NCBI GenBank assembly: GCA_028534125.1 | Contig: CM052832.1 | Span: 8,556,001-8,620,000, forward strand | Length of the DNA stretch: 64,000 nt | Origin: Lama glama | Taxonomy: Eukaryota | Direction: 5' to 3' | Shown here: piece by piece, positions 36 through 57,000 of the stretch | Position numbering within the stretch: position 1 is the first letter of the stretch | Layout of the letters: every line of letters begins with the position of its first letter | Position numbers and translations under genes: made by a program | Notes under the pieces: generated by a model | Database searches by the model: none | Told to the model about the DNA's origin: nothing | What the model saw: only the letters and a program-made list of their open reading frames with translations

Positions 36-3000
36 TTTCCATATCCTGGGGAAGGCAGGCCCTTCCATGCAGCAGGACTTCTACACCGTGGAGCACCTGG
101 CCACGCAGCTCCTCAGCTCTGCCTTCGTCAACCTGAACAACATTCCTGACTACCGGCTCAGACCCATGCTTCATATCCTTTCCGAAGTCCTCTCGGTGTG
201 GAGTAACCACACTCACAGGACAAGAAGATTGACATAAATAGCAGAAGCATGAGAGCAGCCCCGGGGGCTTGCGAGCTCTTTCTCCTTAGGGGTAAATCTT
301 TACCATCCTGTTTCTTGGCAGGATGAAAGATGAAGCTTTTATCCCTTTCCTGCGCTTTGTCAGACGCTCTCATACTGCATTCTCAGACTTTTGTTTGGGG
401 AGTATCCTTCTTCCCTGAAGTTACACTCTAAAGAGAAGCGTGGAGGAGGGTTTATGACAAGGGTGTCTCCTACTTTTTCCCTCTTACTTTGAGGCAACCC
501 AGTGCCCATAATTTGTAGCTGGCAGAAAGGACAGTTAAACTAAAAATACAATTGACTGAGTACCCATACAGCTTAGGATTTTTGGGAAAAGCTGGATTTT
601 TGCCTGTCGACACAGGATGTTGCTGGCCTGTCTGGGGGCCTGACTGCCCAGGTGCCCAGCCGGGGGGTGGGGTGCTCGTGTGCTACGGCTTCTTAACATG
701 CTGCGGCATGGGTCTTTGTGAAGCCTCTGGTGCTCTTCTGCCCCCCGGAGCACTATGAAGCCCTGGTGTCTCCCATCCTTGGACCTCTTTTCACCTACCT
801 CCACATGGTAAGAGAGCCGTCAGGAGAGGGTAGCAAAGAGGACTTTTAGAGTGGGTGGCCCCTCGTGAGTCTCACAAGTCAAGGGCTCCTGAAGTGTTGT
901 CTCCTCCCTGCTGGGCTGGCTGCATGGCTTCCTGAGAACCAAACCAGTTCAGCTGCCTACAGAGCACCTGCAGACTCAGATTCTGCTCTTAACCTGCTGT
1001 TAACTGAGGAGGTGACCAGGGGAGCGCCTTTCCTGGGTCTGTTTCCCTGACTCTGGAATTAAGCAGGGGGACCAGCCGGGTGAAGAACAGATATTCTCCT
1101 GGGTGGAGAAACCCAGGAATTCTTAAGTGTTACTGATCCTTTCCAAGCAAAGAAGTGTTGGACATGCTGCCCTCATCGTGGGTGTGGGAGAGGCTACAGA
1201 AACCGTTATCTGGTTTTTTAACCTTATGGTGTCTCCCAAGACTCTGTCATGGTTTCCTGGACTCATCCTTGGCTAATTCTAATCATGAAGTGGCCCTTAG
1301 GTATTTGTTCCAACCTTCTCCCTAGTTGTAGCACTTAATTCCTCTTTGTTTTCCCAGAGGCTTTCCCAAAAATGGCAAGTCATCAACCAGAGGAGCCTGC
1401 TATGGTAAGGGAGTCGCTCCCCTCCTGGGTGGATGAGCCAGCAGCCAGGTCTGGGTGGGAGACGGTGGACAGGGCAGAGGAGGGTTCTGCCATCCCAAGG
1501 CTGGAACAGCAGTGGGTTACAGTCGTGCTCAGGTGGAAGATGGCTTGTCTGTGACCATTAGGCAGACTCAGCTCAAGCCTTCAGAGGGCACCTGCGGCTC
1601 CTTAGGAGAATGCTGAAACATTCTCACCTACTTTGGATTGTGATCCAGTACCTCAAGCCAAGTAAATACAGTTACAAGTAATAATGCTCCTCAGTGGATC
1701 ATTGCTGCCCATTTCTGACTTTGAATGGAATGTAGACCAGAAGGCAGTGGGCACCACGGGTCTGGTGAGGGTCACTGCTGCTTTTGCACACCCATGCAAC
1801 TTGGCCCCTGGTGTTCTGCAGTGGAGAAGATGAGACAACAGAAGAAAACCCAGAGTCTCAAGAGATGCTGGAAGAACAACTGGTGAGGATGTTAACCCGA
1901 GAAGTCATGGACCTAATCAGTAAGTGGCATGTTGGAGAACCAGGGGTAGAAGAGAAGCCTTTTTCTGAGGGAAAAAAAAGTGGTCACTCACCCAACATGT
2001 TTGCAGTAACACTGACACAGTAATAAGCAACAGTTAACAGACGGAAACTAGGTAGTCCTTAAGTCAGCCTGAGAACATTTTATGAATTGTGAACTGAGTT
2101 ACAGCTGTACAGACTAAGGCCGGAATATGAAGAAATCGCCTAAAAGAGCAGGAGGAATTTGGATTAATAGTAGGAATAACTTCCTAGCTTTGTCAAAATA
2201 GGGAAAGTTAATTCTTAGACATGAAGGTGGTTATATTTCTTTATGCTTTGGTTGGTTCACTTGAGATCCAAAGGAGAAAATTACATATCAAGCATCCTCT
2301 GCTGGTCATTTACTCTCAGATAATTCTGTAATTTCCCTCCAATTAATTGAACTTGAAGAGGGACCAGAACAGAGTCTGGTCAAATGCCTCTGTTTCTATT
2401 GGTGAAGCTGATTTTGTGCCTGGAAAGTATCCCACCCTCCCCGCTCCCCACCTGCCCCGAGACAGTTTGGGATCCACTGGCCTGAGCTCTGGTGCTAATT
2501 AGCCCAGTAACCGTGCTTTCTCGCTTCAGCTGTGTGCTGTGTTTCAAAGAAAAGTGCTGACCACGGTGCTGCCCCCGGGGCTGATGGAGATGGTGAGTGA
2601 GCCTGCTGCACCTCTTGAAGTGGGCCGTTAAACTCCCAAAATTGTTACTTCTGTAACCAGGTCAGCTCCTACAGAAACTGTTTCTAGCAGTCTGGCTGAG
2701 GCCTGGAGATGTCTACATGGCTTTCATCTGTGCTGGCCCCCCTGCTCTGTTCCTCCAGCCCAGCCCCACCTCAGAGCGTCTGCATAGGGTGTTTCCTCTG
2801 TCTGGACGATGTTTTCCCAACTGCATACGTGGCCCGCTCCTTGATTTTTATTCAGGTCTCTGCTCAGAGGTCACCTCTGAGAGGCCATCCATGAACAGCT
2901 TATCAAAAGTAGCAGCGCCAGCCACTCTAGATTCTTCTTGTACATTCACTCTTCACAGCCTGAGTGCTACCTGACATTGTTTTATTTATATATTCATTTA

Positions 3001-4548
3001 TTACTTGTCTCCCTCACTAGAATTTAACTCCCAACAGGGAAGGGACTTTGTCTTTTTCCTGTTACATCCCCAGTAACTAAATCAGCACCGCTGCAGCGTG
3101 TGCTTAAATATTTATTCAACAACAAAAGATCCTCAGCATTTGCAGCTTTTAAAGTAACTGTCCAGAAAGTCCTCTGTTTTGCAAATGTACAGCTAGATGT
3201 CTCTCTAGCCCTGCCGTGGCTTCTCCACCCTCTCGTGGGGTACCATGCCACCTCCAGTCAGCCCAGGACACTCACCATTCCTTTACTCTGCGGGCTTCTG
3301 TCAGGACAGGACAGTCTGTTCTGAAAGGATGGAGCTTAACATTCTGCTCTTTGCTTACAGATGAAGAGATGATGGCCACAGAGGTCACCCCCTCAGCCAT
3401 GGCAGAGCTCACAGACCTGGGGAAATGCCTGATGAAGCATGAGGTGGGTGGCAGGGCAGGTGAGATTTTCTCCCTGCCCAGCTGGGGAGCCCGTTTCCAC
3501 TTTCTTACTTTCTGGTGCCACCAGGAGGCTTTGTTTTTTGGTAATAGTCCTTTTATAAGTTCCTGGTACCTAAATCCCCCAGAAAACAGTAGGAAAGGCT
3601 CAAGGCCAAGGCAGAACCTCTCAGAAAAACACTCAGGCTCACCCATGCTGATCCCTGGTGCTCAGCCTCCCTCAGGCTGAGCTTTGTCTCCTCCCGGCAC
3701 GTAGGTTTTCTCTTCTACGTTGGTTAGCTTTCCTGTTTACCTATTAAAACTCTAGCTCCTGGTACATAAAATACAGAGCCCGTTATGCTGCTTTTCCCAT
3801 TGTAATCCTTCACCCTTTTCTGTTAGGATGTCTGTACAGCGCTATTAATTACAGCCTTCAATTCCCTGGCCTGGAAGGATACTCTGTCCTGCCAGAGGAC
3901 GACCACACAGCTCTGCTGGCCTCTCCTCAAACAAGTACGGTTACTCACCCTTTTCTCCTTGCCCCTTATGAGACGTTTGGGTCAGGAGGACTGAGCGAAT
4001 CAGCTGGAAGGATTGGGGTGCTGGGGCCTTGAGAGCCCCACTTTGGCCCTGAGCACAGCCGTCTCCCCAGGTGCTGTCAGGGACGCTGCTCGCAGATGCT
4101 GTCACGTGGCTTTTCACCAGCGTGCTGAAGGGCTTACAGACGCACGGGCAGCACGACGGCTGCATGGCCTCCCTGGTCCACCTGGCCTTCCAGATCTATG
4201 AGGCGCTGGTGAGTGGGGGAGGTGTGAGGGCAGGACGGCTGTGGCTGCACCCCTCACAGCCTGCTCCCAGTCACTCGGGCCTTATACTAAGGCACTGCCT
4301 CTGAGAAATGGGTGTGGCAGAGAATGGGGAAAGTGGCAGGGCCCAAACCTATACGACTGAGCGGGTTTATCCCTACTTCTCAGCGTCCCAGGTACCTGGA
4401 GATCAGAGCTGTGATGGAGCAGATCCCTGAAATTCAGAAGGACTCCCTGGACCAGTTTGACTGCAAGCTTTTGAACCCCTCTCTGCAGAAAGTGGCTGAC
4501 AAGCGCCGGAAGGACCAATTCAAACGCCTCATTGCTGGTTGCATTGGG
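36..4548 (+). CDS. XPO5: Exportin-5, C-terminal coding exons (gene starts upstream of the window; last coding exon hidden in N-gap 4675-4862)
   Basis: Exons 36-172, 710-807, 1358-1404, 1822-1919, 2530-2592, 3361-3443, 3827-3934, 4071-4208, 4384-4548 splice in frame: FHILGKAGPSMQQDFY...RPMLR/VFVKPLVLFCPPEHYEAL...RLSQKWQVINQRSLLC/GEDE...QFKRLIAGCIG, matching exportin-5 as I recall it. All introns are GT-AG except 173-709 (U12 type). Confidence 0.96.
173..709 (+). other. U12-type (minor spliceosome) intron of XPO5 with AT...AT termini
   Basis: 5' splice site ATATCCTTT at 173-181; branch point TTCTTAAC at 690-697; intron ends CAT at 707-709. This junction gives the in-frame M-L-R(C|GG)-V-F-V-K. 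Confidence 0.9.
2740..3123 (+). mobile_element. L2 LINE 3' end
   Basis: ...CACTAGAATTTAACTCCCAACAGGGAAGGGACTTTGTC...AAATATTTATTCAAC, typical L2 terminus; boundaries approximate. Confidence 0.7.
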
Positions 4549-7158: not shown

Positions 7159-14910
<7,752 letters not shown>

Positions 14911-21566: not shown

Positions 21567-24500
21567 CTAGTTGAGCAGGTTGCCCTGCTCCTGGGCCTGG
21601 GTCAGGCTGTCTTTGCGGTGCAGGTGGTGCACCCCCATCCTCTTGGGGCTGCGCTGGGGGCGGCTGGAGCTGGGGAGTGCCCAGGCCCTGCCCTCAGAGC
21701 GGGGAGTGCCAGGCCCCTCTTCTGTGTCACAGTCACCGGACAGCAGGCTCTGGCGCTCTTCCTCGGGGCTGACGGGCAGGTTCAGCTCTTCCTCTTCCTC
21801 CTCCCTGGGAAAGCCAGGGTCAGCTTCTGTTGGCAGTAAAAGCCCGCTTTCACCAGGTAGGGAAGAAGGTGCCTGAACCTCCTCATCTCCGTCAGCGGGG
21901 CCTAGAGCAAAGTGGCGCTGCAGCTCAGGGAGCGCATCACGTCCGAAGGCTGTGCGCTGGGCCACAGCAGCCGGGGGCGGAGTGCGGTCCACAAACGCCC
22001 GCTGCCAGCTGGCCAGCAGGTCCTCCTCAGAGCTGGCAGAGCTGGCCGGGGCGCTGGGTGTCGGGGGGGCAGGGCTGGGCTGGTGCTGGGGTGAGGCCTG
22101 GGCTGAGGCAGGGCTGCTGGGCATGGGGCTGGGGCGGGCCCGCTCTCCGCCCTCCTCCACCAGGCTCAGGGAGATGGCCTGGCGGGTGGCATACGTGCAG
22201 TTGGGCAGGGGGCTGTTGCGGGGTATCCGCACCTTATCCTCAGAGAACTCTATCACCTTGCGGCCAGAATACAGAGGGTGCGGCGGAGACGGGGTTGGGT
22301 AGGGGCTCAGCTTCTCAAAGGCTGGCAGGGGCGGCTCCTCCTCTGGGGAGCCCCCAGCAGTGCCCAGAGAGCGGCACTCCCCATTGGGTTGGGGGGTTGG
22401 GCTGCCAGGGGCTGGAGGACCGGCCAGGTCACCCCCACTCATATCCACATGCACAAAGACGTCCTCAGCCAGGGGGCAACCGGCACTGCCTGACTGGGCT
22501 GAATTGAGCAGAAGAGACTCTGGCTTCTCCAACACTCGAGCAATGACCGAGGTGGGAACCACAGCCCCCGGGGCCGGGCTGGGGGCAGTGCCCAGGCTGG
22601 CAGCCTCCTGACCACTGCGCAGATGCTTCCGAACCATGTCCTGTAGCTCACAGGGCAGCTGGGGTAAAGGAGAGAGAAGGAAAGAGAGACATGAATGATC
22701 CCAGCCTGACAGCTCTCTCCCTGGCAAAAAGTAACGGCTACCATGTATAAGGACCACAGTGTGCGGGACACTTGCTATCTATCTGTTCTTACAGCATGCC
22801 AAGGTATATCCTCATTTCGCAGATAAACTGAGACTCAACAGGGGTAAAATAACTTGAAGCTTTTGATTAACACAGCCATAATTTGAACCCAGTACTCGTG
22901 CTAAGGCCCATGTGCTTTCAAACGCCTAACTCCCCCATCCCAGCAGTACCTTCTGCCCAAACCAGGCACGAGCTTGATAATCAGTACTGATCAGAAGCCT
23001 TGGAAATACCTCCATTCCTTCTGCAGGCCTGAGCTTGGGCCTGAGCTCTGGGATCTAGAGTTTCTTCCTGGGGGCAAGAGGCCCTCTCAGTATTCTTATG
23101 GCTCATAGCTCTGGCCACTCCCTCCTGCACAGGATCCAGAAATTGAGACCCTCTCTCTGTGTCTGTTCCAGAAATACCAGTAAGGCCAGCCCCCACCCCA
23201 CCCCATCCCTAGTGATGGGCCTTTGATAGGACATAGGACACTAACCAGTGGCAGAGTTGACCAGCTTGAGAGGAAACAGGGAGGCAAGGGGATGACAAAG
23301 AGGGAGCTGAAGGCAGGAGAATGGAGAGAAGTGTAGGAACTGGAGTTAGAGGGGCCCTAAAATATGTGGACTGGCATTGGCAAGGAGGGCACCCTACTCA
23401 CATCAGCGAACTTGTGGTTACGGAAGTGGGACTTGTTGCACTTGAGGAGCTGCACAGCGAGGTTGCAATCCAGCCGGTACCGCTCCTGCAGACACAGACA
23501 GGGTTCAGAGCCCAGCCCTGCCCGGGGGAGCACAGGCGGGGAGGACCCGAGGCGCACGTACATTGAGCTCCTCCAGCTTGTTGATGGTGTTCTTGGCGTC
23601 CAGCAGCTTGTTGGTCAGCTCCACGATCTCCCAGTCCAGCGTCTTCCTATCCATCTCAGCCTTCTTGATCTGGGGCACAGGACTCATGGTGAACCCAGCC
23701 CGCACTCAGCCAGCCCTTCCTCACTTCCCCCTCCTCCCAGCCCAGAGACACAGGAAGCCACAGGTGCTAGGGCAGCCAAGGCGGACAGAGTAGACAGACG
23801 ATGGACAGACAGAAGGAGACCAGACACCTCCATAGTCCAGGCTGGCTGTGGGGTGGGGGCCTTTCTGAGCATGATCGATGGCCGCTGGGCCCAGGACAGA
23901 GTAGTCTAAGAGCTGCCCAGCCCTTGAGGGAGCTCAAGGGGCTCCACACACCAGGCGAGGCAGCTGGTACCTTAGAAGCAATAACTGTGCAAACCCAGAA
24001 GGTGGGAGGGAGCTGCAGGCTCAAAAGCAGCCTTCGGACCATCAGCTCCTGAACTAGATCCACATTCCCCTTCCCCCAGATGGCTTGGGCCTGCTACCGC
24101 TGCAGCTGAGAAGCTGTGAGCATTCAGTGGTGACCTCTGAATCAGTACCTCTGCGCAATCCAAGAGCAGCCTCCCCAACCATCCCCCAAGAGGGAGGCAC
24201 TGACTGCTGAACGGGCCTCACACGAGGAAAAGGAAAGGAGTGGGCAGAGGGCAGTGGCCAGCCCCCAGCAATTCCAGATCTCAGCTGAGGAGGAGGCCAG
24301 GGCAAGGGAGAAAACACACAAACTCAGACGCAACTGCAAAAATCCAGCTGTGGCTAAGAGAGGCCTGAGAGGAGAGTGCGGCAGCGACGGTGGCAGCATG
24401 AGGGGAAGACGAGGAGAGAAGAGAAACAGTGTGAGCATTAAGACAGTCCTGACTTGCACAGCACACTGCGGGCCCCGCCCCACCACGGCCCACCCGCCTT

Positions 24501-54059: not shown

Positions 54060-57000
54060 ATGCCCAGCGGCTGCCGCTGCCTACATCTCGTGTGCCTGTT
54101 GTGCATCCTGGGGGCACCCGTTCAGCCTGCCCGAGGTGAGTGCTCCCCCACGCTCGGGTCCCGGCCCTGTCCGGCCGTCCCTCACTTGCACGTTGACCTC
54201 TGCAGGCCAGAGACGGCACTGCAGCCGCTCCGACTCGCTGGATCGGCGACACCCAGGACGTCCTATTGAAATGCAATGAGTCTCAGTTCTACCCTGCCCC
54301 AGAGCTGAGCCCACCCTATTGCTGGGACCCTGCATCTTTTCCCGACCCCTGCATCTCAGACGAACCCTGACCCCGGGTTCACTCCTCCCACATCAATCTC
54401 TTGCAGCCGATGACTGCAGCTCCCACTGTGACCTGGCCCACGGCTGCTGTGCTCCTGACGGCTCCTGCAGGTACCTTTCCTGAGCACGTGCTCCCAATCC
54501 CTCTGCATTTTCTGGGCCTCCACACCCCCAACCAGATCAGGCCCCAGAGCAAAGTGACTAGGGGCTTAAGACTCTGCTGCTCATTCCCTATAACGTCAGG
54601 TACAGGGCACAGGGCACAGGACAAATGGCCAGCCCTGCACCCGTCCCCCACCTCCAGTTCCTCTTTGCCTTGCCTCTCCTTTGCCTCTTTTAGCTTATGG
54701 CTTCCCACGTTACTCTCCCAAGTCTGACCTAGGAATTCTGCAACATTCCTCTTCAAGACACCAACAGAAAGTCCTAAAGCTTGAGGAAGTTTAGAAATTA
54801 GAAGCCATGAGGAAAGGGGGAAATAAAGGAAAGCTACATTGAGACTTGGTTTAGCCTGGAAAAGAAAGGCTGTTGCGAGGGTTGCTGGGGAGAAACACTT
54901 GTGAAAGAGGGTCTGTCTTGATGAATTTGAGTAATTGACTCACTGGGGTTGGGGGTGGGCAAACTCTGTAGCAGGAGGAACGTGTATCTGGACACAAGGA
55001 AATGAGCTGACAGGGCAAGCTGCTGGAGAGTCTGGGGGTGCATGGGATGCTCTGAAATACATTGGTCTTTGCCCTGGAATCAGGGTGGGAAGATAGTTCT
55101 GATGACCTTTCAAGGTCACTGTTTTTACAAGACCTTTCTAAGCATCTCAGACAGGCCAGGAATGGTGCTGGGGGCACTTACAGAAATCATCTTAATTTCT
55201 TCCTCAACACATCCCTCCAAGGTGTATCCCAGTTTACACATGAGAAAACTGAGTCTCAGAAAGGTTAGACAAAGTGCAGAACCAGGACTTGATTGCTGGT
55301 GTCTGATGGTCTGATTCCATATATGTGTCCTGTGACCCTGCACAGCCCTCTATCTACCTGGGGTAGGCCTGCTTTCCCTTAGGGGCTGTCACGTTTGTCT
55401 CCTGTTACCCAGAGACTCTGATCTTGCCTCCTCCATTTCCTCACATCCCCCGACCCACAGCCCTGACCCTGTGCTTCTCCCCATCAGGTGTGACCCAGGC
55501 TGGGAGGGGCTGCACTGTGAGCGCTGTGTGAGAATGCCTGGCTGCCAGCATGGTACCTGCCACCAGCCCTGGCAGTGCATCTGTCACAGTGGCTGGGCAG
55601 GCAAGTTCTGTGACAAAGGTAGGGGAGTAGAGAGGATATCTGTGGGGCTGGGGGCTCCATGTGTTTTGGGAGAACATCAGTCCTTATTTACTGAGCACCT
55701 CTTCTGTCCAGCTCAAACCTTCAGATATATGGTATTTTATAACTACAGACTTTACACCTATCTGTTGTCTGAATTGGTCCTCAACACAATCCTGCATGGC
55801 AGGCAAGGCAGCTGCTGAAAATTGTACTCATGTTACAGATGAGGAAACAGCTCCACAGATGAGATACAACATGCCCAAAGTCACTTTGAGCCAGACTGAC
55901 AGTGCCAGGGCTGGGCACCTCCTGACTCCAAATTCAGTGATGATGTTTTCCCCCACTACATCCGTACCAGCCCAGGATGGGATTGTAGCACAAGCCACAC
56001 CCACAGAGCTTTGGGTGGGGCCTGGGCAGGTCAGGGTGCTATCCCAGAGCCCTCCTGGTCTCCTCTCCAGATGAACACATCTGTACCACGCAGTCCCCCT
56101 GTCGGAACGGAGGCCAGTGTGTATACGACGGGGGTGGCGAGTACCACTGTGTGTGCCCATCAGGCTTCCATGGGCGTGACTGCGAGCGCAAGGCTGGACC
56201 CTGTGAGCAGGCCGGGTGAGTGCAGGTCCCAGGTTAGATGAGAATCTGGTGACACGAGGGAGAAGGGAGGATTGTTGAGAGGGTGGTGGTGAAGGGTTAG
56301 GGGTAAGGGTCTTGGAGGCACCCGAGGATAAAACCCCAGCCTGCCAAAGTATCCCTCGGGTTCTTAACTTTCTTGGTACCATTTGACCCATTTCTCCAAC
56401 AAAAATCTACAGGGGCTGGGGGTGTAACGCATCAGTGTGTGACTGCCCCGGTTGGGAAGGCTGAGGACCTGGGTCTCCCCTCATCCTCCCAGGATCTTGT
56501 TCCACACAGCAGCCTTTATGCCTCATGGTGAACGAAGAAATGGCCTGCAGGGCTGGACTTGTCCCTCAAACTTCCACCGCAGACCTGAGAGCCTGTGAGG
56601 ATAATAATAGTACACTTGCCTTGAGCCTTGTCTCTTGGTCAGGCCCTCTGCTACATGCTTAACTTCAGATTATCTCGTTTAACCCTCACAATTTGGGAAG
56701 CTGGGTACTGCTCTTATCCCATTTTTAAAATGAGGCATTTGAGGCTCAGAGTGGCTCAAGGTGACACAGCTGGAGGTGATCAGGATGTTGACCTCGGCTA
56801 CCCTGCAGGTGGAAGTCAGTAAAATGCCCTCTCCCACCCCACCCAGGTCCCCGTGCCGGAATGGTGGGCAGTGCCAGGATAACCAGGGCTTTGCCCTCAA
56901 CTTCACGTGCCGCTGCCTGGCGGGCTTCGTGGGTGCCCGCTGTGAGGTAAACGTGGATGACTGTCTGATGCGGCCTTGTGCTAATGGCGCCACCTGCCTG

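Follow-up and report, generated by a model that had tools for sequence, protein, structure and literature searches.

The XPO5 gene in this Lama glama assembly contains a conserved minor intron with AT-AT termini, whose human counterpart ends in AC; its final T probably arose through deamination at a CpG, and the U11/U12 spliceosome would cut the intron at 172/710 much as it does in human. This A-type U12 intron spans positions 173..709 on the plus strand of the window (the whole 64,000-nucleotide stretch that was analysed), is 537 nt long, and interrupts the reading frame in phase 1.

Structure of the XPO5 minor intron

The host gene was identified from its translation. Positions 712–807 encode a segment identical to residues 894–925 of human Exportin-5 (32/32; PDB 3a6p chain A), the protein matches to the XPO5 exons of the window carry PF19273, and the locus is single-copy in the assembly, within a long contig. 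Identity to the human protein and a single intact locus thus mark it as the gene of Exportin-5; a pseudogene was rejected on account of the intact frame, and a search of the assembly for a retrocopy showing the XPO5 junction found none. Nine coding exons between 36 and 4548 were mapped by eye on the plus strand, of which 36..172 (open frame, preceded by AG at 34–35) lies on the 5′ side of the minor intron and 710..807 on its 3′ side. Those that follow are located at 1358–1404, 1822–1919, 2530–2592, 3361–3443, 3827–3934, 4071–4208, and 4384–4548, and the join of all nine gives a 312-residue frame with 0 stops. GT-AG ends are present in seven of the eight mapped introns, the exception being 173..709.

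Exon 36..172 closes on C, the first base of a split arginine codon that corresponds to human R893, the numbering being taken from the alignment of exon 710..807 with the human protein. Exon 710..807 begins with G, likewise in human, and the sequence downstream of the intron's terminal CAT reads GG GTC TTT GTG AAG. Joining 172 to 710 therefore gives C/GG (Arg) and regains L-R-V-F-V-K-P-L, so that the conserved RVFVKPL which the initial annotation had proposed across this junction is read in frame. Since the bases flanking the junction differ, its position is unambiguous, and sliding of the boundary was rejected.

The 5′ splice site ATATCCTTT at 173..181 agrees with the U12 consensus RTATCCTTT, as given in PMC1635337, and is identical to the donor of human XPO5. 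A branch-point motif, TTCTTAAC, is located at 690..697; it is close to TTCCTTRAY and lies a short distance from the 3′ end, with 12 nt separating position 697 from the end of the intron, and both motif and spacing are common to human XPO5. The branch adenosine would accordingly be 696, from which the intron runs on for another 13 nt. The 3′ splice site at 707..709 is CAT in the assembly sequence (CAC in human), which makes both terminal dinucleotides AT. The donor, the branch point and its spacing, and the CAT end had all been described in the initial annotation, and each was found where it had been placed. Within 63 kb of the plus strand, ATATCCTY occurs 3 times and the branch-like motif 20 times; from the window frequencies, a given pair of exon borders would carry both signals by chance with a probability of approximately 1e-7. 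Other RTATCCTY sites are present at 22806, 31831, 39224, and 45350 on the plus strand and at 55639, 12397, and 3882 on the minus strand. None of the remaining sites of the RTATCC or branch-like type was assigned to an intron or an exon border, and their numbers fit chance.

Protein models were also compared at the junction. The comparison covered 199 XPO5 proteins, namely 120 of the 212 matches listed and 79 cluster members (at most 15 per cluster), and 144 of them span the minor-intron junction. R-V-F is aligned there in 132 of the 144, including a rat model that carries an insertion, while 11 run into the intron as H-I-L and one is otherwise odd. The read-through models (P0026, P0028, P0029, P0030, P0046, P0052, P0093, P0126, P0140, P0183, and P0188) come from camel, sheep, deer, cow, shrew, and others; because read-through is spread over such different mammals, from cow, deer, and sheep to shrew, it is taken as a failure of gene finders and is uninformative on the AT-AT end. 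Among the compared proteins, only the Camelus ferus model P0026 has the T-T-E and the S, G, and A residues of the window, from which it differs at a single position in the exon and at another in the read-through part. It reads into the minor intron itself, and the 199 proteins include no correctly spliced camelid model. When metagenome contigs were searched for orthologous XPO5 introns, the exon motif gave 0 matches; the branch-plus-exon motif gave at least 121 loci, with no XPO5 among the matches listed.

Two further features were observed downstream of XPO5. An LTR-like stretch with AATAAA and a promoter-like tract was seen by eye at approximately 10260–10950; it is intronic to the next gene after XPO5, which is on the minus strand and which we take, from human synteny, to be POLR1C. 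Two head-to-head gene starts lie approximately 300 nt apart within 11300–11725, one of the minus-strand gene, presumably POLR1C, and one of a plus-strand gene, presumably YIPF3, that begins at 11644.

Orthologous introns and the frequency of AT-AT ends

The rows for XPO5 in human and mouse catalogues match the position of this minor intron, which is thus conserved, and together with the exon identity they bear out the initial call of a U12 intron in XPO5. In their supplementary tables, de Wolf et al. 2021 (PMC8280824) class the human intron as U12 AT_AC, with a length of 1762 nt (chr6:43528926-43530687, minus strand) and the terminus CAC/GT, i.e., AC followed by an exon G; TTCTTAAC scores 0.94 as its branch motif. 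The supplement of Olthof et al. 2019 (PMC6717393) lists the intron as minor in human and in mouse (911 nt), and gives no terminal bases. The window's intron resembles the human one in position, phase (split R893), donor, TTCTTAAC motif, spacing, and first exon base G, and resembles that of mouse Xpo5 as an orthologous, catalogued minor intron. It differs from the human intron in ending AT instead of AC, which is the outcome of the ortholog comparison that the initial annotation had called for, as carried out here for human; it is shorter than in both species; and where the human intron has CAG, three bases upstream of its last triplet, it has CGG. The accessible portions of the supplements of PMC10639083 and PMC7367187 contain no XPO5 row.

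The splicing of the human intron has been measured. According to the same tables of PMC8280824, its retention is 0.127 in healthy lymphoblasts; in HeLa cells, loss of CENATAC for 48 h raises it from 0.199 to 0.414, with a log2 change of −1.18 in XPO5 mRNA, and in ZRSR2 mutants it goes up from 0.155 to 0.612. An alternative donor inside the intron, listed without its position, also increases on loss of either factor. The human XPO5 intron is thus already inefficient and dependent on the minor spliceosome.

AT-AT ends were described as very rare in the initial annotation, which is an overstatement. Larue and Roy 2023 (PMC10639083) rank AT-AT second among the non-canonical ends of animal minor introns, with 701 introns (0.952% of the conserved ones), while plants have 4. 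Sheth et al. 2006 (PMC1557818) counted 6 such introns in each of human and mouse; their Table 3 records AC/AT switches in 4 of 24 human–mouse pairs (ERCC5, Gpaa1, Zc3hdc6, and Slc9a8). The first table of PMC8280824 contains 8 human U12 AT_AT rows, namely ERCC5, UBR3, KCMF1, SMC3, IK, SRSF12, TCTN1, and HNRNPLL; a ninth match came from the U2 sheet and was dropped. The XPO5 intron shares with this group the U12 donor and branch motif, AT at both ends, and the G after the junction that is seen in 5 of the 8, and differs in its host gene. As in the human–mouse switches, a single letter at the last intron base differs between mammals, whereas XPO5 is absent from that Table 3 and the lineage here is camelid. 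A minor intron in XPO5, the AT-AT subtype, and AC/AT switching between mammals are therefore already known, and the camelid XPO5 end is likely an uncommon but known, tolerated, and fairly ordinary variant. A search of the literature, conducted outside subscription papers and the intron databases that may list it, found no paper on AT-AT ends in XPO5 or on camelid minor introns.

CpG decay as a candidate source of the AT end

Comparison of the two sequences suggests that a single C-to-T change at the CpG spanning the junction (AC/G to AT/G) likely explains the difference between the window and human. A methylated CpG across the intron–exon border would have been deaminated to leave T at 709. 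Only the change on the intron side would be free, because its counterpart in the exon would alter the arginine codon. The observed/expected ratio of CpG is 0.27 in this part of XPO5. The initial annotation had proposed such a CpG transition from an AT-AC end, and the human CAC/G now fits it; the direction from AC to AT, and with it the CpG route, we infer, AC being the likelier ancestral state because AT-AC makes up 84% of A-type introns.

The first exon base of other AT-AT introns hints at CpG decay as a more general maker of this end. Of the 8 human AT-AT introns, 5 are followed by G, against 10 of 56 AT-AC introns (Fisher p = 0.014; p = 0.010 without the near-duplicate GATD3A), a comparison in which the 56 rows are about a third of all AT-AC rows and not a random draw. 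These bases were read by eye from supplement rows of PMC8280824; the AT-AC sample consists of 12 + 23 + 22 rows, from which a duplicate of TM2D1 was dropped and XPO5 was left out. Individual genes point both ways. SLC9A8 is AC/G in human and its mouse orthologue AT-AT, and in the human rows HNRNPL is AC/A and HNRNPLL AT/G. On the other side, 3 of the 8 human AT-AT introns have A, not G, after the junction, and ZC3H6 is AC/A in human although AT-AT in mouse. The bias toward G would arise equally if AT ends were spliced better before G.

Other human AC/G minor introns were located in the llama genome by Pfam search and named by matching the human rows. All four, STX10 (L125, 1679–1830), TCEA2 (L130, 1154–1498), MCMBP (L149, 3681–7009, minus strand), and IPO5 (L150, 3598–4755), are still AC/G. 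Two TCEA paralogues (L131 and L151) also have AC-ended minor introns, one before C in what we take to be TCEA1 and one before A in what we take to be TCEA3; a paralogue of STX10, presumably STX6, was left out of the counts as its acceptor lies beyond the stretch fetched. XPO5 alone has thus switched among five AC/G sites (1/5), and with the other four unchanged, decay is not their usual fate; the Cs of AC/G junctions may be under selection. Many plants have gene-body CG methylation and are nearly without AT-AT introns despite it, which argues against a CpG source. Taking both sides together, it is possible, at a little short of even confidence, that mammalian AT-AT minor introns come mostly from CpG decay at AC/G, with camelid XPO5 as a fresh case; the base that opens the following exon would then determine the last intron base through mutation pressure, and selection for slower splicing would not. 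A literature search outside subscription papers found no report that connects CpG decay with AT-AT ends.

Acceptor choice, splicing efficiency, and competing readings

In U12 introns whose first base is A, the last base can be any nucleotide (AT-AN), and it is the branch point, not an AG, that determines the 3′ cut. Between 2 and 48 nt past the presumed branch adenosine, the window offers four A-N dinucleotides, ending at 699, 709, 722, and 723, of which only 709, 13 nt from the branch, keeps the frame; acceptors 699, 722, and 723 were rejected, as each shifts the frame into a stop within 11–28 codons. The CGG at 704–706, which replaces human CAG, leaves no AG between 659 and 723, and the loss of a competing AG beside a weaker AT end could be permissive or a matter of chance. 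In the proposed mechanism, U11 and U12 would bind the donor and the branch motif, and the 3′ cut would be placed 13 nt past the branch point at the AT ending at 709, free of a competing AG. The spliced RNA would encode an intact Exportin-5. A retained intron would add 21 residues before the in-frame TAA at 235..237 on the plus strand, which is reached after 21 codons and which the initial annotation had correctly noted as the stop met upon retention; decay of such RNA is predicted because seven mapped introns follow this TAA. Splicing efficiency is predicted to be near normal, since AT-AT ends are a known and tolerated variant.

Other readings of the intron end were weighed against this one. 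It seems unlikely that the species has an ordinary AT-AC intron here and that an assembly error, or a rare allele in the animal sequenced, accounts for the T at 709. This T is read from one assembly in which the locus is single-copy, the four other AC/G introns are unchanged in the same genome, and 709 falls at a CpG, a class of site known as a polymorphism hotspot. Against an error stand the long contig, the single copy, and the unbroken frame of 312 residues, as well as the fact that no real change is commoner than C-to-T at CpG; six runs contain 0.92–0.97 of the sampled words of 40–2600, which fits an accurate assembly at a resolution coarser than one base. Highly improbable, in turn, is the use of another acceptor or of the major spliceosome, or an AT that is the old state in many mammals with human AC derived. 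An AG is present 27 nt past the branch adenosine, and the comparison of intron ends covered human only, but splicing at 723 shifts the frame into a stop after 11 codons and the high share of AT-AC among A-type introns argues against an old AT. The pyrimidine content before 710 is 0.55, the lowest of the eight XPO5 acceptors (0.65–0.85 in the others); with the ATATCC donor and no in-frame AG near the exon, a U2-type AT-AC or GT-AG intron was rejected.

Quite unlikely, too, is that the AT end weakens splicing into a lineage-specific throttle, in which retention or use of an inner donor at 402 would lead to decay of XPO5 RNA and less pre-miRNA export at low minor-spliceosome activity. Summaries in PMC1557818 and PMC4176328 describe AT-AN introns as spliced productively, with AC preferred over other A-N ends, and a tandem reporter in PMC8280824 has G-type sites beating A-type sites. 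The inner motif GTATCCTTC at 402..410 on the plus strand, a putative G-type U12 donor, lies 229 nt past the real donor, and splicing from it would leave the TAA at 235 in the RNA; the alternative donor activated in human XPO5 by CENATAC or ZRSR2 loss also speaks for such a route. However, the chance expectation for a motif of the GTATCCTTC type over the length of this intron is approximately 0.017, and as the motif was spotted post hoc, it may be a chance occurrence. Basal retention in healthy cells has a median of 0.074 for 8 human AT-AT introns versus 0.109 for 45 AT-AC introns (Mann–Whitney p = 0.82), in rows sorted by effect and including two AT-AT rows with low counts, and 6 of the 8 are retained less than human XPO5. 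These rows thus give no sign that the AT end by itself raises retention. The initial annotation had suggested that, were splicing inefficient, output of the pre-miRNA exporter would depend on minor-spliceosome activity; the dependence is real, but it is common to human and not created by the T.

As a single case, XPO5 matters little and adds one more AT-AC to AT-AT switch to the published list; it would gain weight if a measurable loss of efficiency were shown for the AT version, in a gene by which microRNA export is set. It also serves as a warning that gene finders misread the minor-intron junction (11/144 models). If the CpG origin is true, HNRNPL (AC/A) and HNRNPLL (AT/G) would represent two ways of losing one CpG, and a comparison of orthologues of one intron that end in AC and in AT would be a natural test of the effect of the last base on efficiency. 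The CpG bias, if true across mammals, would be a simple neutral source of the second commonest non-canonical minor-intron end.
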